A DNA stretch of 64,000 nucleotides from an uncultured Gammaproteobacteria bacterium (GTDB taxonomy: Bacteria; Patescibacteriota; Patescibacteriia; Magasanikbacterales; UBA922), in the NCBI GenBank assembly GCA_964597575.1, contig CAZQXB010000001.1, positions 206,792 through 270,791 on the forward strand, given 5' to 3'. The notes under the pieces are model-generated. The model did not search any database and was not told the origin of the DNA. It saw nothing but the letters and a program-made list of their open reading frames with translations. This document shows positions 1,312 through 56,527 of the stretch, one piece after another; positions within the stretch are counted from its first letter, which is position 1; the number at the start of each line of letters is the position of its first letter. Made by a program: the position numbers and the translations under genes.

Positions 1312-2628
1312 ATGGAAAAAGCCCAAAAAAAGAATCACCCGGATGACGATCTCTTTCTTCGGTATAAAGGAGAAATTATTCGACAAAATGGTGACGACAA
1401 GCTCCGTGATCCTGAATTTATTGATAAAATGGAAACAGAATATGGTCAGGTCGCCAAAGAACTTACTCACCGTATGGCCGGTGTTTTGGGGGAAGAATTT
1501 TTTATTCATTTGAAAATAAAATTCTCCGCCGAAGACACGGGAGAGATTAAAAAGTCCGTTATTGACTACCTTGCTGCTCGGTTTAGTGAAGAAAAACATT
1601 CGGGTGACCAGACGCCAGCGGAGTGGTTAGAGAAGGTGAAAAATTTTGAAGAGTTACGGAAGCGCGTGGCTGATAAAGAGGACAAAATTGCTGCTTCTGA
1701 AGACTACGAAGCTCTCAGTGTTATGTCGGGGGAAGAAAAAGAGAAGCGTATCGCGGTATACGAAACACTTGCTGGGTTAAAAACAGATAAATTTTTTTCC
1801 GGAGGAAAAAAGTTGAAGTTGCTTCGTGGGTTAGGGGCCAAATCTCACCCTACATCAGCGGTACGCAAATGGACCGACATTCTTCGCTCTAAGGAAGAGC
1901 GAGATGCGCTTGATATTTACTTCTCGAAGCATGATGAGGTGGAAGGGGGAATGGGGCGTGAAATTGCCGATTTAGATACGGTAGAAAGAGATCTAGAAAC
2001 ATTAAAAAATATTCACGATGTCGCAGAGCTTCGTGCGCTTCGTGCAGAAATTTTAAATACATTTTCTGTAATCACGAATGTTCATAATAAAGTTGCACTG
2101 TGGTTCGGAGAAACACTGAGTGGAATCGAAGCTCGGGGAGGAAAAGACCGAGAGCGCATAGTTAAGTATCAAGCCCAAATTGATGAGTTAAATAAAGTTC
2201 GATCTCTGCAAAAAAAAGGAGTCTTCTTTACGGGGAATCCTTTGGACCTAGAGGATCAAGTTGGGGCTATGCAGGTGATAGATGAGGGTATTAATGAGAC
2301 AACAGGAAAGATAAAAAAACTTCTCGAGAAAGAGGTGAAAGATGAAATTACCCAATTTAAGTATTATGAGAGTAGAGATGCATCAAAGACTTTCAAAGGT
2401 GAGATGTCTCGGGTGCTCAGTCATTATTTTAAGCCAGAAAGGAGAATTGGAAATTTAAATACCGAACAAAAGCTGGCTTTTTTTGCTGAACTTTTTAAAG
2501 ATTTGTCCAAAGATAAAGATGTCGTGAACTCCCAAAGTGGCAAGGAAAAAATAGCTCTTTTGCAGGAAGCATATGTGAGACTTGAGGATGACGTAGAGGC
2601 TATGCGAAGTAAAAAAGCCAAGAAATAA
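1312..2628 (+). CDS. Hypothetical soluble protein, highly charged and coiled-coil-like (Lys/Glu-rich), function unknown.
   Basis: 438-aa ORF tightly packed between the flanking ORFs (1303/1312 and 2628/2632), suggesting a 3-gene operon. No motif recognised. Confidence 0.5.
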   Translation: MEKAQKKNHPDDDLFLRYKGEIIRQNGDDKLRDPEFIDKMETEYGQVAKELTHRMAGVLGEEFFIHLKIKFSAEDTGEIKKSVIDYLAARFSEEKHSGDQTPAEWLEKVKNFEELRKRVADKEDKIAASEDYEALSVMSGEEKEKRIAVYETLAGLKTDKFFSGGKKLKLLRGLGAKSHPTSAVRKWTDILRSKEERDALDIYFSKHDEVEGGMGREIADLDTVERDLETLKNIHDVAELRALRAEILNTFSVITNVHNKVALWFGETLSGIEARGGKDRERIVKYQAQIDELNKVRSLQKKGVFFTGNPLDLEDQVGAMQVIDEGINETTGKIKKLLEKEVKDEITQFKYYESRDASKTFKGEMSRVLSHYFKPERRIGNLNTEQKLAFFAELFKDLSKDKDVVNSQSGKEKIALLQEAYVRLEDDVEAMRSKKAKK

Positions 2629-3122: not shown

Positions 3123-5330
3123 TTAGTGGCCGGTATCGGCAGTGTCGATGTCTTCCGTTTCGTCGGCGACGGTGCTTGAATCCACGCTGGGGGCATAAGC
3201 CGTTGTGGCCGTGCTTGAGGTGCCGATCGGCGCTGCCAATCGAACCTCATCAATCACGACGTGTTCAATCCCTTCCGGCACGTCGAAGGTCGGCTTCGAG
3301 TATTCCGGCAAGAGACTGGCTTCTGCCATGAAACGAACCCAGAGTACTCGAGGGAGGTCGCCACCGGTGGCGCCCTTTCCGTTGGCCATAACGATCGGGG
3401 TATTATCGTCATACCCCACCCACACGCTGCCTCCGAGACTCGGAGTGAACCCAACAAATCGTGTCGTCCTCGACTCGTTTGTAGTTCCGGTTTTTCCGGC
3501 GATGGCCACCGGTACCTTTTTGGCAACAGGCTCTGCTACTTTCATAAGCGCGTCCGTAACGAGGTATGCGACCTCTGGGGTGAGCACTTGGGCCGGAGGC
3601 GCGAGGTTGTTTTTGAAGACCACGCTTCCATCACTGGCAAGGATTTCCTTTACCCAGTGAAATTGGGCCAACTTGCCCTGGTTCCCAAATGCCAAATAGA
3701 TAGACAAGACGTTGGTATCGCTTGCCTCTATCGCACCAATCATCGCCGACGGTTGAAAGCGCTCAATGATCCCCTCGTAGCGGAATTTTTTTGCCACCTC
3801 GATTACTGGCTCAAGATGGATCGTTCCTGGTCCCGCTGTCTCCCATTCTTCGTCGGAGATCTCGTCTTCCGGATGCCGAGAGAAGCCGAGTTTCGCCACC
3901 GTATACATCGTGCATACGTTCGATGACTTTTTGAGCCACTTCCACAAAGGAATATATCCTCCTTCCGTTTTTCCCTCGTAGTTTCGTGGTGTGTAGTCTC
4001 GTGGCGGCTTCGACTCGGCGATACGATACGTTCGACTCTCGTCGAGGCAGGCCCCAGGGAATCCGAAGATTTCTGGGTGTTCCATGGCCGCCGCGTATAC
4101 GAGCGGCTTAAAGGTCGAGCCAATCTGTCGTCGCGACTGGATGGCACGATTCCATTTTCCTGCTGCTCGTGCGGAGCGGCCACCTACCATGGCGATCATT
4201 TCTCCGGAAGGGGACATAACGGCAAAACCTGTTTCAAGCATCTTGCCCGGAGTCGAACGGACTTTGGTATCGAGTTCTTGGAGGCCTTCTCGAACCACCT
4301 TTTCTGCTATGGCCTGAACCTTCAACCGAAAGGTGGTGTACACCTTTAGTCCGTGCGCCGTCGCCTGCTCTGACCCGAGCACCTCGATGATTTGATTGCG
4401 TACATGCGTACACAGCCATCCGGTTGCATCGCCATCTGCCTCTCCAGGCGCGGTCGCAATGACAAGCGGAAACTGCTTCAGCAACGCAACCGACGAAGTC
4501 GCAACCTCGCCCATCTCGGCCATTCCGCTTAGAACATAGTTCCGTCGTTCGAGAGCCCAGTTTGGCCGGGTGGCGTTGTTGAACAGGTTGCTCGGGGCCT
4601 TATAGAGGCTTCCCAAGAACGCTGCTTCGACCGTTGTGATCTGGTCGAGTGGTTTAGCAAACCACACACGCGCGGCTTCACGAACCCCCTGAACATTGCT
4701 TCGGCCTGCACCTGCTCCATAGTTCGCGAGGTTGTGGTACATCTCGAGAATGTCTTCCTTCGAGAATACCTTTTCAATCTCGCGCGCCATTTTCAGCTCA
4801 AATCCCTTTCTCATCCACTTGTCGCCTTTCGGAACAAGATTTTGGTACGGAGCATTTGGGGCGAAGAAAAGCATCTTCACTACCTGCATGGTGATGGTCG
4901 AAGCGCCGCGCAGCTTTTTGCCGGTGCCGAGCGTCTTCACGTTGTCGTAGATTGCGGCGCCGAGGCCACGGTAGTCTACGCCATTGTGCTCGTAGAAACG
5001 TCGGTCTTCGGCGGCTAACGTAGCCTGGACCATGACCTTCGGAATTTCCTTAAACAGGACCGGTACCAGGGTGGGGGCATAGTGGGGCTTCCCGTCCACC
5101 ATCTTTTCGATGTACGGGAGCCGACAGATGATTTCCCCATCGGCATCGTATACTGTGGCATTCCGCCGCAACTCACTGCGGTAGTCCTTGACCACCGAAA
5201 TGTCCGGCATGCGCTGGCTGAAGTAGTGATCAAAGTAAAGGTAGGCCGCACCGGCCCCTACGAGAGCGATAATCCCGAGAAGAAACAAAATCACGAGAAT
5301 CTTCCAGAGCTTCTTCATGGTCGTTACCAT
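3123..5330 (-). CDS. Class A penicillin-binding protein (bifunctional transglycosylase/transpeptidase, PBP1A-type). The likely start is the second Met (MKKLWKIL..., about 5318), which begins a signal-anchor.
   Basis: N-terminal TM anchor. Transglycosylase motif EDRRFYEHNGVD. Transpeptidase SxxK (STFKP) and KTGT(T) motifs. The gene is much more GC-rich than its neighbours (hand-counted sample lines about 53-58% versus about 40%). Confidence 0.9.
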   Translation of the reverse strand: MVTTMKKLWKILVILFLLGIIALVGAGAAYLYFDHYFSQRMPDISVVKDYRSELRRNATVYDADGEIICRLPYIEKMVDGKPHYAPTLVPVLFKEIPKVMVQATLAAEDRRFYEHNGVDYRGLGAAIYDNVKTLGTGKKLRGASTITMQVVKMLFFAPNAPYQNLVPKGDKWMRKGFELKMAREIEKVFSKEDILEMYHNLANYGAGAGRSNVQGVREAARVWFAKPLDQITTVEAAFLGSLYKAPSNLFNNATRPNWALERRNYVLSGMAEMGEVATSSVALLKQFPLVIATAPGEADGDATGWLCTHVRNQIIEVLGSEQATAHGLKVYTTFRLKVQAIAEKVVREGLQELDTKVRSTPGKMLETGFAVMSPSGEMIAMVGGRSARAAGKWNRAIQSRRQIGSTFKPLVYAAAMEHPEIFGFPGACLDESRTYRIAESKPPRDYTPRNYEGKTEGGYIPLWKWLKKSSNVCTMYTVAKLGFSRHPEDEISDEEWETAGPGTIHLEPVIEVAKKFRYEGIIERFQPSAMIGAIEASDTNVLSIYLAFGNQGKLAQFHWVKEILASDGSVVFKNNLAPPAQVLTPEVAYLVTDALMKVAEPVAKKVPVAIAGKTGTTNESRTTRFVGFTPSLGGSVWVGYDDNTPIVMANGKGATGGDLPRVLWVRFMAEASLLPEYSKPTFDVPEGIEHVVIDEVRLAAPIGTSSTATTAYAPSVDSSTVADETEDIDTADTGH

Positions 5331-38888: not shown

Positions 38889-38938
38889 GCCGGATGATAT
38901 GCTTGTACGTTATACTGTGGCATAGTCCCTATAAAATT

Positions 38939-40507
38939 ATGAATACCCTTTTTCCTCGAAAAACTGCCCTCCTTATTTTGGATGGTTTTGGTCTTGCCCC
39001 ATTTGATCGCCCAGGAAATGCTATTCGCCCGGATACTGCTCCTCATATTTTTGAGTATAAGAAAAAGTACACGGCCACGGAATTAAATACCACTGGGGCA
39101 ACAGTGGGTCTCTTTCCAAATCAAAAGGGAAATTCCGAGGCCGGACATTTAACTATCGGGACTGGTCGAATTGTAAAACAAGATTTGGTACGAATTTCTG
39201 AAGCGATTAGTAATGGTACTTTTTTTAAGAATGAAGCCTTTAAACAGGCTACTCATCACGCCAAAAAATATCATACGGCGGCACACATTTTCGCCCTCCT
39301 TACTGATGGAAACAGTGCTCATGCATACCCAGAACATATTTTTGCCACACTTGAGTATCTTCGCCGCGAAGAAATTCGTGAAGTGTACCTGCATCTTTTT
39401 ACCGATGGTCGAGACAGCTCTCCGCATAATGCTCTGGTGTTTCTTCAGGCGCTTCGGGGTCATATGGTTGGGGGGGAGAAAATCGCGACAATGATGGGTC
39501 GCTACTATGGTATGGATCGAAATAAGACATGGTCGCGTACGAAAGAAGCTTATGAAGCTATTGTTTTTGGTAAAGGGGGTCATGTTGCCAAAAGTGCCGA
39601 GGAGGCGATAACTCTTGCCTACAGTCGAGGTGAGACCGACGAGTATATTACCCCAACCGTTATTGTTGATGACGAATCAAAACCTATCGGAACCGTAGAT
39701 GATAACGATGTTATTTTTTTTACAAATGCACGCAGCGATCGGGCAAGACAATTGACTAAAGCCTTTGTGCAAGAGGATTTTCAGAAACTAAATCCAGGAG
39801 CTTTTCGACGCTCTCGGGTACCAAAAAATATCCGTTTTGTTGCCATGACTGATTTCGGACCGGATTTGCCAGGAGTGTTCACTGCTTTTCCAAGTCCAGA
39901 TGTACCAAATGCTTTGGCTAAAGCAATTGGAGAGAGCTATCGCCAATTATTTATTTCTGAAACAGAAAAGTATGCTCATGTAACATACTTTATTAATGGT
40001 GGGTACGCTGAACCAATAAACGGGGAAAAACGAGAATTGGTTGCCTCGTCTCCAATTTTATCGTATGCAGATTTACCGGAAATGAATGCGGCAGTGCTTG
40101 CTGATCGAATTGCAAGTGCATTTAAAGAAGATGAATATGATTTTGTGTGTACTAATTTTCCTAATGCTGATATGGTGGGGCATACGGGAAATCTTTCAGC
40201 AGCCGAAACTGCGGTTCGGGCCTTGGATAACGCCGTGGCTTTGGTGGTTGAAACGACTCTCTCGCTCGGTGGTCAAGTAATGATTGTTGCCGACCATGGA
40301 AATGCTGAAGAGATGATTAATCTGGCCACTGGGGATATTATGACTGAACACACCAGAAACCTGGTTCCTTGTATTATTATCGGGAAAGGGTTTGAGAAGA
40401 TGCCGATAAAACCCGCAGGAACATTGGCTGATGTTGCTCCAACCTTGCTTCACATGATGGGACTTCCTCAACCCGAGGAAATGACAGGAAAATCATTATT
40501 ATTGTAA
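38939..40507 (+). CDS. gpmI: 2,3-bisphosphoglycerate-independent phosphoglycerate mutase (iPGM), copy 1.
   Basis: ALLILDGFG ... NSEAGHLTIGTGRIV ... iPGM phosphatase and transferase domain motifs. The start was set at MNTLFPRK. Confidence 0.9.
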   Translation: MNTLFPRKTALLILDGFGLAPFDRPGNAIRPDTAPHIFEYKKKYTATELNTTGATVGLFPNQKGNSEAGHLTIGTGRIVKQDLVRISEAISNGTFFKNEAFKQATHHAKKYHTAAHIFALLTDGNSAHAYPEHIFATLEYLRREEIREVYLHLFTDGRDSSPHNALVFLQALRGHMVGGEKIATMMGRYYGMDRNKTWSRTKEAYEAIVFGKGGHVAKSAEEAITLAYSRGETDEYITPTVIVDDESKPIGTVDDNDVIFFTNARSDRARQLTKAFVQEDFQKLNPGAFRRSRVPKNIRFVAMTDFGPDLPGVFTAFPSPDVPNALAKAIGESYRQLFISETEKYAHVTYFINGGYAEPINGEKRELVASSPILSYADLPEMNAAVLADRIASAFKEDEYDFVCTNFPNADMVGHTGNLSAAETAVRALDNAVALVVETTLSLGGQVMIVADHGNAEEMINLATGDIMTEHTRNLVPCIIIGKGFEKMPIKPAGTLADVAPTLLHMMGLPQPEEMTGKSLLL

Positions 40508-40511
40508 TGAT

Positions 40512-42083
40512 ATGGCTCGACCAAAACCAGTGGTGCTCGCAATTCTGGATGGCTGGGGAGTTGCGCCTGACGCTGAAGGTAACGCCATTACTCGTGCGCG
40601 ATTACCACATATTAGTCAGTTTATCCGCGAATACCCAGTCATGACCCTCTTTGCTTCTGGTACAGAGGTCGGTCTTTCTTTTGGAGAGATGGGAAATTCT
40701 GAGGTGGGACATTTAAATATCGGTGCTGGTCGTGTGTACTACCAAACATTTCCGCGCATTCAAAAAAGTATCTTAGACGATTCTTTTTTTACCAATAAGG
40801 CTTTTCTTGAAACGATCGAGCAAGTGAAGGCAAAAAAAACAGCACTTCATATCATGGGACTTGTTTCTCCTGGAAATGTGCATGCAAGCGATAAACATTG
40901 TTTAGCTCTTTTGAAATTGGCCAAACAGCACCGAATCAAAAATGTCTTCGTTCATGTATTTCTTGATGGGCGCGATACGGTATATAACGGGGGCAAAGAA
41001 TTTGTGGCCGCTCTTGAAACAGAAATGCGTCGCATGGGGGTCGGAAAAATTGCCAGCATCTCTGGACGATTTTATGCGATGGATCGCGATAATCGATGGG
41101 AGCGTATCGAGCAGGCCTACCGAGCTATTGCTGAAGGGAAGGGGCCTCTTATGCCAAGTGCGGCTTTGGCCATTGAATCTTCTTATGAGCGCGGAGTATA
41201 CGACGAAGAATTTGTTCCTGTTGTTATTGGCAAAGACGGTCCTACTGGCAAGGTTTCTTCTGGGGATGGCATTATTTTTTTCAATTTTCGCCCTGATCGT
41301 GCGCGAGAACTCACCAAAGCTTTCGTATTGCCGAGTTTTGCAAAATTTGAACGAACGTATATTGAAAATTTGGCTTTTGTAACCATGACCGAGTATGAAA
41401 AAGAAATTCCGGTCTCGGTGGCATATCCGCCACAAATCATTCATGGGTGTTTAGCCGAAGTGATCAGTGCTGCTGGTTTGAAACAGCTTCATGTCGCTGA
41501 AACAGAAAAGTATGCTCACGTTACTTTCTTTTTAAATGGAACGGTTGAAGAACCATTTCCTGGAGAAACGCGTCAAATTGTTCCGTCGCCCAGAGTAGCC
41601 TCGTACGACCAGGCACCAGAAATGGCCGCGGCTGACATTACGAAAATGGTCGTTGCGGCAATTGAGGGAGGAGAGTACGATGTTATTATTTGTAATTTCG
41701 CGAATGCAGACATGGTTGGGCATACGGGAAATTTTGAAGCCTCAGTAAAAGCGTGTGAGGCGATTGATCGATCGCTCGGTCTCATTGCCGATCATGTGCT
41801 TGCCAAAGACGGTGTGTTATTGATTACAGCAGACCACGGAAATGCGGAAGAAACGGTGAATTTGCACACAGGGACGATGGATAAAGAACACAGTAATAAC
41901 CCTGTTCCATTCATGATTATTGGGCACCGTTTTCGAGGCGAGGTAGGGCCGGCAGGTGATCCAATTAATGGTGACATCAGTTTACTTTCACCCGTTGGTA
42001 TTTTGTCTGATGTCGCGCCAACCATGTTGTCTATTTTGGGAATCAACCAACCTCCGGAAATGACGGGTCGGCCACTTATTTAG
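40512..42083 (+). CDS. gpmI: 2,3-bisphosphoglycerate-independent phosphoglycerate mutase (iPGM), copy 2, a diverged tandem paralogue.
   Basis: VVLAILDGWGVAP ... NSEVGHLNIGAGRVYYQ ... SETEKYAHVTFF ... ADMVGHTGN. It lies 5 nt after copy 1. Confidence 0.9.
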   Translation: MARPKPVVLAILDGWGVAPDAEGNAITRARLPHISQFIREYPVMTLFASGTEVGLSFGEMGNSEVGHLNIGAGRVYYQTFPRIQKSILDDSFFTNKAFLETIEQVKAKKTALHIMGLVSPGNVHASDKHCLALLKLAKQHRIKNVFVHVFLDGRDTVYNGGKEFVAALETEMRRMGVGKIASISGRFYAMDRDNRWERIEQAYRAIAEGKGPLMPSAALAIESSYERGVYDEEFVPVVIGKDGPTGKVSSGDGIIFFNFRPDRARELTKAFVLPSFAKFERTYIENLAFVTMTEYEKEIPVSVAYPPQIIHGCLAEVISAAGLKQLHVAETEKYAHVTFFLNGTVEEPFPGETRQIVPSPRVASYDQAPEMAAADITKMVVAAIEGGEYDVIICNFANADMVGHTGNFEASVKACEAIDRSLGLIADHVLAKDGVLLITADHGNAEETVNLHTGTMDKEHSNNPVPFMIIGHRFRGEVGPAGDPINGDISLLSPVGILSDVAPTMLSILGINQPPEMTGRPLI

Positions 42084-43284: not shown

Positions 43285-43650
43285 TTACTTATATCGCATA
43301 TCTGGGAATTCTGCGGAACCATGCTTGGTTTTTGGGCTTTCCTCTTCTTGAATTTGCCAGAGCCATGCCAGTGTAAACAAAGTGCCGGCTAGGCCAAGGA
43401 TACTGAACCAGTACCCTTCAAAATCCTTGAACCACTCCCAGGACAAAATGGCATAGAAACCCGTAGCGTATACCCAGGGCATGAGTTTTTTCGGGGTGAG
43501 AACAAATGCCGCGAGTGTCGTTACCGCCAAGAAGCACTCGCCAGAACCTAGTTGGTCCTGATAGTAGCTCACGAATTCGATGAACCATTTGCCCGTTACG
43601 GCAATAAAGAAAAGAGCAATAAGGAGTTTAGGGAAGAGTTTTTTCTTCAC
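43285..43650 (-). CDS. Hypothetical small membrane protein (about 4 TM helices).
   Basis: 121-aa ORF with four hydrophobic segments. No motif recognised. Confidence 0.4.
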   Translation of the reverse strand: MKKKLFPKLLIALFFIAVTGKWFIEFVSYYQDQLGSGECFLAVTTLAAFVLTPKKLMPWVYATGFYAILSWEWFKDFEGYWFSILGLAGTLFTLAWLWQIQEEESPKTKHGSAEFPDMRYK

Positions 43651-43759
43651 GGACTACCTACCTTTCTTATTTCTTTTATAGGTTGAAAAAACGAAGAAAG
43701 AGTGGTGCAGCGGTCGGGGATGAAATACCGACCGCTGCAGCGTGTTGTCTCGGCCTGCT

Positions 43760-43867
43760 TCATTTAGCCTTCCTTCGCTCCCGCTTGTTCTTCACGCGGC
43801 CGGTCATGGCCACCTGTCCGGTCGGGAAGAGAAGACCCATGCCAACATCGAAGATCACGTTTTGCAT
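43760..43867 (-). CDS. Candidate 35-aa small protein (MQNVIFDVGMGLLFPTGQVAMTGRVKNKRERRKAK) with a hydrophobic N-half and a highly basic C-tail.
   Basis: Not in the ORF track (below the length cut-off). Strong SD aGGAGGG 8 nt upstream of the ATG. A hairpin sits immediately upstream (43876-43900) and a 13-bp-stem terminator hairpin with a T-tract downstream (43705-43742). The local sequence is GC-rich relative to the flanks. Confidence 0.3.
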   Translation of the reverse strand: MQNVIFDVGMGLLFPTGQVAMTGRVKNKRERRKAK

Positions 43868-44082
43868 TAACGCACCCTCCTAAAGACGCGTTTCGCGTCT
43901 TTACCCGCACCTGCCCGAATTGGCCGGTGAAGGTAGAAAACGCCAAACCCTAACTCGAGAGTATAGAAGATTATTCTTTTTTTGTCAATAGAGCCAAATA
44001 TACCGCTTTGTGTATTAAAAAAGTGCTGAATAAAGCAAAAAACTTGCCTTTTATCGCTCTTTTTTATACAATAATAAATACT

Positions 44083-47000
44083 ATGAAAGAATTGTCAAAA
44101 GCCTTTGAGGCAAAACAGTACGAAGACTCTATCTATAAGCGCTGGGAAGAAAGCGGGTTTTTTAACCCTGATGTTTGTGTAGAAAAGGGGGTTACTGACG
44201 CTCGTGCTGAGGCGTTTACGGTTATTCTTCCGCCTCCAAATGTTACCGGAACTCTTCATATGGGTCACGCGTCCATGCTTGCCATTGAAGATCTTATGGT
44301 TCGGTACCACCGTATGAAAGGAGAGAAGACTCTTTGGCTTCCAGGAACCGATCATGCCGCCATTGCAACACAATCAAAGGTAGAAAAAATGATTAAAGAA
44401 AAAGAAGGAAAATCGCGCTACGATTTAGGCCGCGACCCTTTTCTGGCCCGAGTTCACCAGTTTGCGAAGGAATCCCATGATACGATTGTGAATCAGTGTA
44501 AAAAAATGGGCTCTTCGCTTGATTGGTCACGAGAAGCGTTCACGCTCGATGAGCCACGGAATCGGGCGGTACGAACCATGTTTAAAAAGATGTACGATGA
44601 TGGTCTGATTTATCGTGGGTCTCGTATTGTGAACTGGGATCCAAAAGGACAAACGACCATTTCAGACGATGAGCTTGTGTATGTTGAAGAAAAAACAACG
44701 TTTTATTATTTCAAATATGGGCCGTTTGTTATTGGAACTGCCCGTCCTGAAACAAAATTCGGCGATAAGTATGTGGTAATGCATCCAGACGATGAACGGT
44801 ATGCTGCGTATAAGCATGGTGATACCATTTCGGTCGAATGGATTAATGGGCCGATTACCGCCACAATTATTAAGGATACTGCCATTGATATGGCATTTGG
44901 AACAGGTGTCATGACGATTACCCCCTGGCACAGCGTGGTCGATTTTGAGATTGCTGAGCGCCACGGGCTCGAGAAAGAACAGATTATTGATGAGGCGGGG
45001 AAGCTTCTGCCGATTGCGGGAGAGTTTTCTGGTCTCCCCATATCAAAGGCGCGTGCCGGTATTGTGGAAAAATTGCGCACTAAGGGCCTTCTTGTAAGAG
45101 AAGAAGACTATGCTCACCAGGTAGCTACGGCTGAACGCACCGGTGCTTTGGTTGAACCACAAATTAAATTGCAGTGGTTTGTGAATGTAAATAAAGAATT
45201 TGAGCGCGATGGAAAAAAGACGACGCTTAAATCTCTTATGCAGGAGGCAGTAAAGAGTAAAAATATAGAAATTCTGCCCGATCGTTTTGAAAAGATCTAT
45301 TTTAGTTGGATTAATAATTTGCGTGACTGGTGTATTAGTCGCCAAATTTGGTACGGCCATCAAATTCCTGTGTGGTATCGCGGAAGCGAAATATATTGTG
45401 GCATCACTCCGCCTGCAGGAGAGGGGTGGGTGCAGGATTCAGATAGCCTCGACACCTGGTTTTCTTCAGGGCTCTGGACGTTCTCTACTTTAGGTTGGCC
45501 AGAAACGACGATTCATTTCGTGCGCCATGGGGAAGCAGAAAATAACGCTGCGAATATTGTTGACGACGGCACTGGTCCACGATCTTTTCCTCTTACAAAA
45601 AAGGGGCGAGAGCAGGTGAAAAAAACCGCCAAAGCGCTTGCGAAACAATCGATCGGTGTTATTATTTCTTCTCCCGTTCCCCGCGCTAAAGAAACCGCGG
45701 AAATTATTGCTTCAGAAGTTGGCGTGGAAATTATGTATGACGAAGCTCTCCGAGAAATTGGAATGGGCGATCTTCTCTACACTTCTCAAGATGAATTTCA
45801 TGCCAAACGTGGAGATTTTGATCGCTGGCACCACGATTCACCACACGGTGTCGAATCCTACGATGCACTTAAAGCACGTACTGCGGCATGTTTAGAAAAA
45901 ATTCTCGAAACGTACCGAGGTAAAACCGTTGTCATTGTGTCGCACGGAGACCCTATTGCTACCATGAAAAAACTCGGCACAAAATTACCTGATGGTGTGT
46001 ACGATTTGCCAGACACCGGTTCCGCCACGACCTGCACGTTTAATAATGCAAATACCCAGTCGACCGACTTCTCGGTATTTCACCCAACCTCAGTACTCGA
46101 GACCGGATATGACATCATCTTTTTTTGGGTGGCCCGCATGATTCTCATGGCAACATATGCGTTAGATCAAATTCCGTTTCGTACGGTGTACCTCCATGGA
46201 CTTGTGCGTGATGCTGAAGGGAAAAAAATGAGCAAATCCCTTGGAAATATTATTGACCCGCTCGACATGATCGAGAAGTATGGAACCGACGCTACACGTT
46301 TGTCGCTTCTTGTGGGGAATACTCCTGGAAACGACCTAAAACTTTCCGAAGAAAAAATTGCTGGATTTAGAAATTTTACCAATAAAATCTGGAACATTTC
46401 TCGCTTCATGCTTTTGAACATCGAAACGCCGCAGGCAGCAGTTACATGTCCAGAGCCAGAAACAGCGACCGATGCTTGGATTCTCTCTGAACTTTCAGCT
46501 ACGATTGAAGCGTACAGCGGACACCTTGATCAATTTGAGTACTCACAAGCAGGGGAGTTGCTTCGTGCGTTTACGTATGATACGCTGGCTGATTGGTATC
46601 TTGAACTTGCAAAACTTGAAGGGAGAAAAGATGTGTTACTCAATTATATTTTGAACACCCTCCTTACGCTGTGGCATCCGTTTATGCCATTTGTGACAGA
46701 AACAATCTGGCAAGAAATGTACGGCAAGGATGCGTTTCTTATGGTGCAGCGTTGGCCGGAGATAAAAAAAGTGAAGAAGTCAAAAAAAGAAAATCCGGTC
46801 ATGTCCGTACAAAAGGTGGTTTTAGCACTCCGTCAGTTAAAATCCGATTATCGTATTTCAAAAGCAGAAGAGGCCAGTATTGTGGCTGATAAAGGTGTGA
46901 AAAAAGAACTTGAATCGTTCCTTCCGCATATAGCGAAACTTGCCGGTGTAGTTACCATGACGTTTGCCTCAGAAATTCCAGATGGTGCCGTACATACGTT

Positions 47001-47244
47001 GGTACAGGGGGTGGGTAAAGTTACACTAACAGTAAAAGGACAGGTGGATACCGCAAAGGAAAAGATTCGTATTCAAAAAGAAATAGACTCAGTTGCGCCG
47101 TACCTCCAGGCCCTTAAAGGAAAACTTTCAAATGAAAGCTTTGTGTCGAAGGCACCGCCGCAAGTGATTGAGATTGAAAAGAAAAAACTTGCTGACGCGG
47201 AAGAAAAATTAATAAAACTTACGGAGCAACTCGCTTCACTATAA
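44083..47244 (+). CDS. valS: Valyl-tRNA synthetase carrying an in-frame insertion of about 190 aa: a histidine-phosphatase (phosphoglycerate-mutase superfamily) domain.
   Basis: HMGH (HIGH), KMSKS, tRNA-binding and the C-terminal coiled-coil are all present. Between the conserved ...WFSSGLWTFSTLGWPE and FHPTSVLETGYDIIFFWVARM blocks (normally about 7 aa apart) lies HFVRHGEAENN...SSPVPRAKETAEII...VVIVSHGDPI. The start was set at MKELSKAFEAKQYE. Confidence 0.9.
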   Translation: MKELSKAFEAKQYEDSIYKRWEESGFFNPDVCVEKGVTDARAEAFTVILPPPNVTGTLHMGHASMLAIEDLMVRYHRMKGEKTLWLPGTDHAAIATQSKVEKMIKEKEGKSRYDLGRDPFLARVHQFAKESHDTIVNQCKKMGSSLDWSREAFTLDEPRNRAVRTMFKKMYDDGLIYRGSRIVNWDPKGQTTISDDELVYVEEKTTFYYFKYGPFVIGTARPETKFGDKYVVMHPDDERYAAYKHGDTISVEWINGPITATIIKDTAIDMAFGTGVMTITPWHSVVDFEIAERHGLEKEQIIDEAGKLLPIAGEFSGLPISKARAGIVEKLRTKGLLVREEDYAHQVATAERTGALVEPQIKLQWFVNVNKEFERDGKKTTLKSLMQEAVKSKNIEILPDRFEKIYFSWINNLRDWCISRQIWYGHQIPVWYRGSEIYCGITPPAGEGWVQDSDSLDTWFSSGLWTFSTLGWPETTIHFVRHGEAENNAANIVDDGTGPRSFPLTKKGREQVKKTAKALAKQSIGVIISSPVPRAKETAEIIASEVGVEIMYDEALREIGMGDLLYTSQDEFHAKRGDFDRWHHDSPHGVESYDALKARTAACLEKILETYRGKTVVIVSHGDPIATMKKLGTKLPDGVYDLPDTGSATTCTFNNANTQSTDFSVFHPTSVLETGYDIIFFWVARMILMATYALDQIPFRTVYLHGLVRDAEGKKMSKSLGNIIDPLDMIEKYGTDATRLSLLVGNTPGNDLKLSEEKIAGFRNFTNKIWNISRFMLLNIETPQAAVTCPEPETATDAWILSELSATIEAYSGHLDQFEYSQAGELLRAFTYDTLADWYLELAKLEGRKDVLLNYILNTLLTLWHPFMPFVTETIWQEMYGKDAFLMVQRWPEIKKVKKSKKENPVMSVQKVVLALRQLKSDYRISKAEEASIVADKGVKKELESFLPHIAKLAGVVTMTFASEIPDGAVHTLVQGVGKVTLTVKGQVDTAKEKIRIQKEIDSVAPYLQALKGKLSNESFVSKAPPQVIEIEKKKLADAEEKLIKLTEQLASL
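45504..46077 (+). other. Histidine-phosphatase-superfamily domain inserted into ValS (RHG...R...SHG catalytic signature).
   Basis: RHGE(A)ENN, LTKKGREQ, ISSPVPRAKETA and VSHG motifs in the order expected for PF00300-type phosphatases. Confidence 0.75.
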
Positions 47245-51174: not shown

Positions 51175-52299
51175 ATGGCTTCGAAGAGCGTGGAGCTTGC
51201 GAGGCCGGAAGCCTCTCGAGCGCTTGTGCATAAGGGCCAGGGACGGAGTTTCTTTGGTCGTCACGCGCGTATTCTGTTTATCATCCTGAAATGGTGGTTA
51301 CTCAGGCGACCTGTCGATTTTCTCTTTCTGGTGTACGGAACAGAGAGTGATCGTAGGAAGATGCTCCCAGGCTTCCTCGGTCCACGCGTCGGGGACAGGG
51401 TGTTCCCTGGTGGCGTTATTTCGATGGGAACCCATCGCGGTTATATCGCGGTAACGTTCAAGGACCATAACCTGATTCGGGATGATCCGAAAATTGCCTT
51501 GGATATTTTGGAGCGGACCAAGCGTGTGTTCCGCCTTTCGCCCAAAGGAACCGTGGCATTGGCGGGTCAGCTACCTGGGTTTGTTTTGCGCCAAAGCAAG
51601 ATCGAGGCTCCGTTTGTCGTGGGAAACAGGGGAACGCGCTACGCCATGGTGCGATCAACTGAACTTCTTGCGAATACGGAATTTCGTGGCATTGCGCGCG
51701 AGGAACTTACCGTGGCCGTTCTCGGTGGCGCTGGGTTCACGGGCGGAAGTGTTGTTCGGGACCTTGCCCAGGTGTTCGGCGCCGTGATTGCGTTTGATAC
51801 GCGACATGGCGAAGGGGTACCTCCTTCAAGAAGTACTGGAGATATGCCTCGGAATGTGGAGTGTCGGAGTAACCCCGAAGCTTTGCGGAAGGCGGATATC
51901 GTACTGAACTTCCTCCCCAAAGGAGACGATGTTCAATCCCTTGTTCCGTACTTCCGAAATGGCGCCGTGTTCGGTGATGACACTCATCCGATGATGTCGA
52001 GAAAGGTACGGGCCGAACTTCGAAGCAAGGGAATCTATTTCTGGAAGCTCGTCATGGAGCGCCCGGAGACCCCGCTAGAGTACGACCCTCTCCTGCCTGG
52101 TTTTTCAAGAGGGAACATTCCTGGGTGCCTCGTTGAGGCGATTGTCACCTTGGAAACTGGTCGTCGGTTCGATGTTGACTCGCATGCGACTTCATACAGC
52201 CTCAAAGAGTTTGAGGCGCAAGCGGTGTTCTCAGACATTGCTGACCAGCTTGGTTTCCGCGCTCGCTTGGTTGACCCAGACCAAGAAATGATCGGTTGA
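51175..52299 (+). CDS. GC-rich, probably horizontally acquired gene encoding an NAD(P)-binding Rossmann-fold protein of unknown specificity.
   Basis: GxGxxG (VAVLGGAGFTGGSV). Strong SD AGGAGG 6 nt before the ATG. The local GC is markedly higher than the flanks. Confidence 0.45.
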   Translation: MASKSVELARPEASRALVHKGQGRSFFGRHARILFIILKWWLLRRPVDFLFLVYGTESDRRKMLPGFLGPRVGDRVFPGGVISMGTHRGYIAVTFKDHNLIRDDPKIALDILERTKRVFRLSPKGTVALAGQLPGFVLRQSKIEAPFVVGNRGTRYAMVRSTELLANTEFRGIAREELTVAVLGGAGFTGGSVVRDLAQVFGAVIAFDTRHGEGVPPSRSTGDMPRNVECRSNPEALRKADIVLNFLPKGDDVQSLVPYFRNGAVFGDDTHPMMSRKVRAELRSKGIYFWKLVMERPETPLEYDPLLPGFSRGNIPGCLVEAIVTLETGRRFDVDSHATSYSLKEFEAQAVFSDIADQLGFRARLVDPDQEMIG

Positions 52300-55893: not shown

Positions 55894-55997
55894 AGCTTAT
55901 TCGGTTAGATGAATACTTTTTTAGTATACTCCTTTGTAAAAAGAAAAAGTAGAGAAGGTTTTTCAACAACAAACATCTCCTTTAGGGAGATGTTTGT

Positions 55998-56431
55998 GGT
56001 TTTTCTTCGATAAGCCGAATTCTGTTTTTGCTCTTACGAGCAAATGACGATCATTTCTCTGAGTTTCGATGTTACCATCGAAATCAAACGAGCGAACTTT
56101 TCCAAGCCTTCGCGACGGGCCTGCACCACCATTGTGTTGCGGGTTCGTCGCGAAGACAAGGCTGCTCTTTCTCCAGGTAGGGTTTACCACTCCGATACCT
56201 TGCGGGTCGGAGAGTCTGGTGGCCGTAAAGCCCCAGACACTTTTCACCTTTCTCTCCTCATATAAATATGAGGGGGTAGTATTGTCTCTGTGGCACTTTC
56301 CCGCTTCTCTCTTTTGCAAGAGAGAAGGGTGGGTGTTACCCACTGCCTTTGTCGGTAACCCTTGCGGGCTAACGGGAGTTCGGACTTTCCTCTCTAGCGT
56401 GACTGATAGAGCGATCATCTGAAGATAAAAC
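55998..56431 (-). ncRNA. rnpB: RNase P RNA (bacterial type A-like).
   Basis: The minus strand contains GAGGAAAGTCCGAACTCC (P4 5' strand, consensus GGAAAGUCCGGGCUCC) and AACAGAATTCGGCTTATCG (P4 3' strand, consensus ACAGAAcCCGGCUUA). A terminator hairpin (CAAACATCTCC-ctaa-GGAGATGTTTG) lies at the 3' end and a perfect TTGACA-17-TATAAT promoter at the 5' end. The overlapping ORFs are spurious. Confidence 0.75.
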
Positions 56432-56437
56432 AGGCTT

Positions 56438-56466
56438 ATTATAGCATATTTTTGCCATTTTGTCAA
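56438..56466 (-). promoter_or_regulatory. Sigma70 consensus promoter for rnpB (minus strand: TTGACA - 17 nt - TATAAT).
   Basis: Reverse complement reads ctcTTGACAaaatggcaaaaatatgcTATAATaagcc, a near-copy of the PBP promoter cassette. Confidence 0.55.
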
Positions 56467-56527
56467 GAGTACAGAAGCATACTTTCCGGTTGTCAATTCA
56501 GCCTTCTTGGGTTATGATACGGGGCAT

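Follow-up and report, generated by a model that had tools for sequence, protein, structure and literature searches.

Type I toxins are small hydrophobic peptides with a transmembrane helix. Their mRNA is overlapped by an antisense or divergently transcribed small RNA with a promoter of its own, and its ribosome binding site (RBS), which is sequestered in the primary transcript, is freed by processing. Next to these systems (hok/sok, tisB/istR, aapA1/IsoA1, zorO/orzO), the closest described counterparts of the locus reported here are 5′ stem-loop stabilisers and leader hairpins such as those of ompA and aprE, the leader-peptide attenuators of trp, erm and cat, and dual-function small RNAs such as RNAIII/hld, SgrS/SgrT and SR1/SR1P. 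The locus lies in a stretch of 64,000 nucleotides, called the window throughout. On the minus strand, the order of its elements is promoter sites, hairpin leader, RBS and open reading frame (ORF), stem-loop and small membrane-protein gene. This arrangement, called the cassette below, comprises the following features:

43970-43999, minus strand: conserved block TTTGGCTCTATTGACAAAAAAAG with a second, weaker promoter-like site, overlapping the main site
43960-43988, minus strand: main promoter-like site, TTGACA-17-TATACT, with 11 of 12 consensus matches
43868-43954, minus strand: 5′ leader of 87 nt, beginning at the conserved GTTAGGGTTT (43945-43954); start deduced from the -10 spacing
43890-43948, minus strand: long imperfect leader hairpin of 59 nt with helices P1, P2, P2b, P3 and P4 and the loop AAUUCG, from folding and covariation
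43882-43902, minus strand: alternative local hairpin AAAGACGCG-AAA-CGCGUCUUU (arm also given as CGCGTCTTT), abutting the RBS
43875-43881, minus strand: Shine-Dalgarno sequence AGGAGGG, 7 nt before the ATG
43760-43867, minus strand: small ORF of 35 codons plus stop, MQNVIFDVGMGLLFPTGQVAMTGRVKNKRERRKAK, from translation and codon periodicity
43704-43741, minus strand: GC-rich stem-loop with a 10-nt loop, -23.8 kcal/mol, beginning 18 nt past the stop codon
43684-43703, minus strand: pyrimidine/U-rich tail ACUCUUUCUUCGUUUUUUCA, predicted to pair with the Shine-Dalgarno sequence when the full-length transcript is folded
43285-43650, minus strand: gene of a 121-aa membrane protein with GTG start at 43650 and its own RBS, from transmembrane-grade hydropathy windows

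With type I toxin mRNAs the cassette shares an ORF of fewer than 60 codons that has a strong RBS and is missed by annotation, a long structured 5′ leader with alternative pairings, and a predicted pairing of the RBS with a 3′ pyrimidine stretch. It differs from them in that a transmembrane helix is missing from its peptides, which in two of the four lineages are hydrophilic, that it is single-copy at a fixed position and followed by a membrane-protein cistron, and that no antisense promoter was found. As in the ompA and aprE leaders, a stable hairpin lies a few nucleotides from the inferred 5′ end of a strongly promoted mRNA, and in the cassette it is kept through compensatory changes. Unlike these leaders, the cassette also keeps a second, mutually exclusive hairpin, which a simple stabiliser would not need. 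We know of no RNase or binding protein for such a leader in this lineage. Leader-peptide attenuators likewise consist of a short ORF with a poorly constrained peptide, a stem-loop and a gene, and the spacing from stop codon to stem is conserved in the cassette. However, the cassette ORF is long (35-51 codons) and ends 18-23 nt before the stem without overlapping it, and neither a conserved anti-terminator nor a run of regulatory codons nor an adjacent U-tract was found. Dual-function small RNAs resemble the cassette in their size of about 250-300 nt with a small ORF, and in an RNA better conserved than the peptide. In contrast to them, the cassette transcript probably runs into a second gene, and no target or base-pairing seed is known to us.

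We consider it reasonably likely that the minus strand here carries a lineage-specific operon of two genes and that the GC-rich patch forms its promoter-proximal half. The cassette is real, conserved, unannotated and very narrowly distributed, and its general kind is already known. It was found between the DHH gene and valS in this genome and in L002/L090, L082 and L092, so far four related Patescibacteria genomes. L002 is the same sequence as L090, unmasked, and both were counted as one lineage; four lineages were compared in all, two of them close, from a thinly sampled branch. Layout and position were the same in the four genomes, which is beyond chance, and the chromosomal position was unchanged across the carriers. 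In the remoter relatives L003, L011 and L083 the DHH gene directly adjoins valS without the cassette, which thus appears to be present or absent as a whole. A valS probe of the GTDB genomes gave 80 loci, with the cassette only in L002. The DHH protein alone gave no matches as a probe of the GTDB genomes; among 5.8 billion protein clusters, just two of its relatives exceeded 50% identity. A leader covariance model (R1) detected no additional copies over 96 loci, and within the window the cassette is single-copy. No similarity to phages and plasmids was found by blastn of the cassette. Searches of RNA, protein and structure libraries gave no match to any cassette part, ARAGORN called neither tmRNA nor tRNA at the site, and no resemblance to SRP RNA, 6S RNA, tmRNA or T-box motifs was seen by eye. 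A literature search on the cassette gave nothing specific.

Several observations were made on the surrounding genes. L002, L003, L033 and L037 are labelled ‘uncultured Gammaproteobacteria bacterium’, probably wrongly, since they are Patescibacteria-like in valS, gene order and closest relatives. The valyl-tRNA synthetase (44083-47244, plus strand) contains a complete histidine-phosphatase domain (His_Phos_1, PF00300, E 3e-37). As an insertion it interrupts the catalytic core between ...GLWTFSTLGWPE and FHPTSVLETGYDI and takes up residues 477-631 (about nt 45511-45975). The valS matches in L002 and L003, with about 3.2 kb, are similar in length; most other valS loci in Patescibacteria measure 2.1-2.7 kb and appear to be without the insertion. 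Beside the DHH gene, two tandem paralogues of cofactor-independent phosphoglycerate mutase (iPGM) were found (38894-40507 and 40512-42083, both plus strand), and the insertion in valS is another phosphatase of the mutase superfamily near this pair. A bacterial class A RNase P RNA was located at 55995-56430 on the minus strand (146 bits); the 177-aa ORF that overlaps it (55963-56496, minus strand) is probably spurious.

The main promoter-like site had been absent from the preliminary description of the locus. Its hexamers and their spacing are the same in L082, L092 and L090. The second match (43970-43997) reads TTGGCT-16-AATAAT in the window and TTGGCT-17-TACAAT in the relatives, and in the block around it 20 consecutive bases are identical between the window and L002. 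Both overlapping matches are of the sigma-70 type and conserved, and strong tandem promoters would drive the operon. On the opposite strand inside the cassette, a scan of the window, L082, L092 and L090, which sees consensus promoters only, detected none. The motif GTTAGRGTTT, 4-7 nt after a consensus TTGACA-N17-TATACT, was also encountered at about 10 unrelated promoters from metagenomes, including one that lies upstream of rpmH, and two distinct viral sequences have it after a consensus promoter. The idea that GTTAGGGTTT is a general promoter-proximal motif was rejected: it occurs once in the window, and its outside matches are about what chance gives, considering redundancy and the abundance of promoters.

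The leader is 79-87 nt long over the four loci. Between L082 and L092 promoter and leader are 84-92% identical, though the adjacent valS shows a dS of about 0.9. For the same pair nucleotide identity was 44-54% in the ORF, 40-60% in the membrane gene and 64-74% in the stem-loop region. The long hairpin was the best fold of each of the four leaders folded separately (-26 to -36 kcal/mol). Using a hand-made structural alignment, 9 of 18 homologous hairpin pairs were found changed on both sides in a compensatory way, with one non-pair cell. Three of the both-sided changes fall among the three closer sequences and are thus independent of how L002 is aligned. A covariance analysis of both flanking hairpins had been proposed before; leader hairpin and downstream stem-loop alike turned out to be conserved with compensatory changes. 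Model R1 scored 97-99 bits on three loci and 15.4 bits on L002 (E 0.047, filters off). In its architecture the leader is a single long imperfect hairpin with only single-nucleotide bulges and a variable loop (AAUUCG, AAUCGG, AAUCCG, GCGUU). A multi-helix ligand pocket with invariant unpaired nucleotides, by which a riboswitch would be recognised, was not found in it. Rfam returned no family, neither at the gathering threshold in the window nor at permissive thresholds at the site. Weak Rfam matches in the region and in L082/L092 (sRNA41, E 0.06, overlapping the promoter, and mir-455) were dismissed as unrelated hairpin look-alikes.

A second hairpin abutting the Shine-Dalgarno sequence had been placed at 43876-43900; it exists, with the coordinates 43882-43902. 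In the best predicted fold it loses to the hairpin at 43890-43948, which uses the same AAAGACGC strand. Because this strand, the 3′ strand of P2, is shared by both, the alternative hairpin excludes helix P2. It is kept at four of four loci, as AGACG/CGUCU in L082 and L092 and as GAGGU/ACCUC in L002. Three strands changing together suggest a switch. The leader hairpin would set mRNA stability or translation, and the leader may flip to the alternative hairpin beside the RBS. In the predicted full-length folds the probability of the RBS being unpaired was 0.09-0.28, and at three of the four loci the RBS pairs with pyrimidine stretches near the 3′ stem-loop. Whole-transcript folds had a z-score of -3.7 in both the window and L002. 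When the first 25 leader nucleotides were removed, the unpaired probability of the RBS went from 0.28 to 0.26, from 0.49 to 0.54, from 0.38 to 0.49 and from 0.47 to 0.76. Release of the RBS by removal of the 5′ strand of the hairpin was discarded as an idea, the in silico outcome being inconsistent across the loci. Also discarded was a closing helix of 5′ GUUAGGGUUU with 3′ GCCGAGACA, obtained with RNAalifold from two sequences; L082 and L092 do not have GCCGAGACA. Across the ORF region the same number of sequences yielded no consensus structure.

Both the 35-codon ORF for a 35-aa peptide on the minus strand and the AGGAGGG sequence in front of it had been reported earlier, and both are present. 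The spacing given for the latter, 8 nt, counts from the GGAGG core; from the full motif it is 7 nt. At all four loci a GGAGG-type site lies 5-8 nt ahead of the ATG, and the homologous ORFs of the other three have 46, 51 and 39 codons (range 35-51). Start signals and open frame are conserved at the same place in four lineages. The GC contents of the three codon positions (GC1/2/3) were 0.56/0.39/0.72 in the window ORF and 0.53/0.39/0.82 for the four loci pooled, a strong three-base periodicity (p 1e-15). Aligning the L082 and L092 peptides gave a score of 71 for the ORF frame versus 47 and 40 for the other frames and 19 ± 4 for shuffled sequences. Gaps between L082 and L092 measured 3 and 18 nt in the windows covering the ORF and 1 and 5 nt in the two windows following it, the first of which overlaps the last 16 nt of the ORF. 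The motif RI.MT..G...W..LQ.FW...GI is common to three of four peptides. Judged from these sequence features the small ORF is very likely translated. By a rough estimate, the chance that 35 codons following a given ATG stay open at this composition is about 0.3.

The ORF was skipped by gene callers in the window genome. In L082 a public gene call (1514-1984, plus strand) merges the ORF region and the membrane gene into a 156-aa ORF in another frame. This fused call looks like an annotation artefact of a stop-poor GC-rich stretch. The locus shows how gene callers fail, by skipping an ORF in one genome and by a wrong-frame fusion in the other.

Constraint on the encoded peptide was found to be weak. 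For L082 and L092 the ORF had a dS of 0.92 and a dN/dS of 0.70, while valS had 0.90 and 0.06. The other locus pairs gave dN/dS values of 0.31-1.46 for the ORF, all of them rough, since the alignments are short and partly saturated. Purifying selection on the amino acids, with a dN/dS well below 1, was not found for the ORF. The preliminary description had named two observations that would speak against a protein-coding function. The first, substitutions that are not dominated by synonymous changes (dN/dS about 0.7-1.0), was largely what we saw, and as to the second, leader and stem-loop are much better kept than the reading frame. On the substitution pattern, then, the peptide is barely constrained. 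Similarity of the window peptide to that of L082 or L002 was no better than to shuffles. The window copy is without the C-terminal motif W...LQ.FW...GI of the other three and ends in a basic tail.

The suggestion to search for the peptide was borne out for related genomes, with the cassette in three others; in protein sets no homologue was found beyond the entry of L092. Specifically, the window peptide matched none of 1.84 billion cluster representatives and had no exact match in assemblies, and a profile of the four peptides, run against 5.8 billion proteins, returned only the L092 entry itself. A single-sequence AlphaFold model of the L092 peptide showed a helix, three strands and a helix (pLDDT 70.6); compared with the PDB by Foldseek, it gave nothing significant (best E 0.64). 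Neither protein of the cassette had a match in Pfam, PHROGs, PADLOC, NCBIfam or PDB sequences. A likeness of the peptide to AbrB/SpoVT, CsrA or leaderless bacteriocins, noted by eye, was given up as it had no library support. The highest Kyte-Doolittle means over 19 residues were 1.30 for the window peptide and -0.24, 0.34 and 0.96 for the others, all below the threshold of 1.6, and no membrane helix was predicted in any of the four. Net charge was +6 in the window peptide versus +2, -3 and +2 in the others, and with GRAVY values of -0.91 and -0.83 the peptides of L082 and L092 are hydrophilic. A hydrophobic half with a basic tail is peculiar to the window copy. The ORF would give a small, soluble, rapidly evolving protein and not a membrane toxin.

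Past the ORF, a hairpin with a 13-bp stem at 43705-43742 had been described. The hairpin is real; it spans 43704-43741 and has 12 continuous pairs (43706-43717 with 43728-43739), a C/C mismatch and one outer G-C pair. Stem-loops of 12-14 bp were found at the four loci, 18-23 nt past the stop codon and with -20.6 to -27.6 kcal/mol. Their lower stem is conserved, with one pair occurring as A-U, G-U and G-C. Its earlier designation as a terminator with a T-tract did not hold. The T-tract is not adjacent to the stem, the tail being CCACTCTTTCTTCGTTTTTTC, the first 8 nt after the stem contain only 3-4 U in every locus (L002 has AAAAUUUCCCC), and a terminator scan called the site neither in the window nor at any homologous locus. 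With no adjacent U-tract, the stem-loop is not a canonical Rho-independent terminator; it probably acts as a 3′-end, attenuator or stabiliser element. The tail is alike in L082 and L092 and different in L002. The membrane-protein gene, probably the second cistron, begins 54 nt beyond the stem-loop. In its product, the last two hydrophobic segments and the acidic ...TKHG.A.F tail can be aligned with proteins of 67-76 aa encoded in the same place in L082, L092 and L090. The window protein is longer at its N-terminus by about 50 residues, which include two further hydrophobic segments; these shorter versions lack that part. Searched against 5.8 billion protein clusters, the 121-aa protein found only itself. 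The stem-loop would end or stabilise most transcripts, so that less membrane protein is made. With most transcripts ending or protected there, we propose that the small protein is in excess over the membrane protein.

The GC-rich stretch on which the preliminary description had centred was confirmed, with a GC content of 0.53-0.60 in 100-nt windows across 43700-43950 versus 0.463 for the whole window. Three sources may account for it, namely the structured leader, the G/C-ending codons and the stem-loop. The ORF consists almost wholly of G/C-ending codons, with a GC3 of 0.72 in the window copy and 0.91, 0.81 and 0.82 in the others; the host genes in the window had a mean of 0.41 (range 0.34-0.64). 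High GC3 as a mark of high expression was considered and rejected: ribosomal protein L25 has a GC3 of only 0.38, so high GC3 is not the high-expression signature of this host. Since a GC3 of 0.7-0.9 is retained in four diverged genomes against an AT-leaning background, it suggests that selection acts on the RNA. Apart from the ORF, high GC3 in the window is confined to the gene of a class A penicillin-binding protein (3123-5330, minus strand, GC3 0.64) and a 374-aa ORF without Pfam match (51175-52299, plus strand, GC3 0.57), both of which may be of foreign origin.

Other explanations of the locus were weighed against the two-gene operon. If the ORF were a cis-acting leader ORF, the act of translation and not the peptide would matter, and ribosome traffic would gate expression of the membrane gene. 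This agrees with a dN/dS of 0.7-1.0 in an ORF far less conserved than the leader, with a stop-to-stem distance held within 18-23 nt at four of four loci, and with a window copy that is without the C-terminal motif yet keeps RBS, ATG and open frame. We nevertheless regard it as unlikely. Judged from footprint size, ribosomes at the stop codon would stay short of a stem that begins 18-23 nt further on, and reading the four sequences did not reveal any conserved pairing of the anti-terminator kind. In the window ORF there is a CCGACCG repeat that could compete for the stem; it was not seen in L082. Moreover, GC1 and GC2 are those of ordinary protein composition, and a motif is common to three peptides. 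Were the product chiefly a regulatory or dual-function RNA, structured and about 250-300 nt long, the ORF would be incidental or secondary. Leader and stem-loop as the best conserved parts, whole-transcript z-scores of -3.7 in the window and L002, and G/C-ending codons kept in four lineages against an AT-rich background, which indicates selection on the RNA, would all be in line with this. However, three-base GC periodicity and in-frame indels are unexpected of a non-coding RNA, RBS and ATG are conserved, no Rfam family matched, and two sequences gave no consensus structure over the ORF region. Such an RNA seems quite improbable to us.

The type I toxin or small membrane-active peptide checked by an antisense RNA, of which the preliminary description had been reminded, fared worst and is very unlikely. 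The N-terminal half of the window peptide is moderately hydrophobic and its tail basic, the mRNA is highly structured with an RBS that is mostly paired in full-length folds (unpaired probability 0.09-0.28), and pairing of the RBS with 3′ pyrimidine stretches at three of four loci recalls the hok and aapA1 mRNAs. Yet no window of membrane-helix grade exists in the peptides, those of L082 and L092 are hydrophilic, charge varies from -3 to +6, the basic tail is not shared, and the consensus scan found no antisense promoter at any locus scanned. The cassette is also single-copy in the window, and little weight attaches to the predicted pairing of a purine-rich site within a GC-rich RNA of such length. 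Should there be a membrane-active partner, it is the downstream protein, with its transmembrane segments and a tail shared by four loci. Another reading is an antagonistic pair (toxin and antidote, or peptide and immunity protein), in which excess soluble protein would neutralise or partner the membrane protein. The two genes have diverged much more rapidly than those next to them, with the regulatory RNA and DNA conserved, gene order and the intervening stem-loop would give the first product in excess, and the cassette is present or absent as a unit. Against this, PADLOC, Pfam, NCBIfam and PHROGs gave no match for either protein, there are no export or processing genes nearby, weak constraint explains the fast evolution equally well, and the cassette has a fixed chromosomal position without phage or plasmid similarity. 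We give such a pair little credence. A more elaborate version is a long shot: a compact RNA-controlled antagonistic module of episymbiotic Patescibacteria, in which a leader switch of three strands (A, B and C) would keep both hairpins, selection on mRNA structure would hold the G/C-ending codons (dual-function RNA), and the two proteins would co-evolve as a so far undescribed type of toxin-antidote-like pair.

The practical reach of the cassette is small, because only four lineages carry it, with no function assigned. To a reduced Patescibacteria genome, in which any accessory module still retained is informative, it contributes a small gene that had gone unannotated and a conserved leader RNA. 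Strong conservation of promoter, leader and stem-loop around two very fast-evolving small genes makes an unusual contrast, and one that can be tested.
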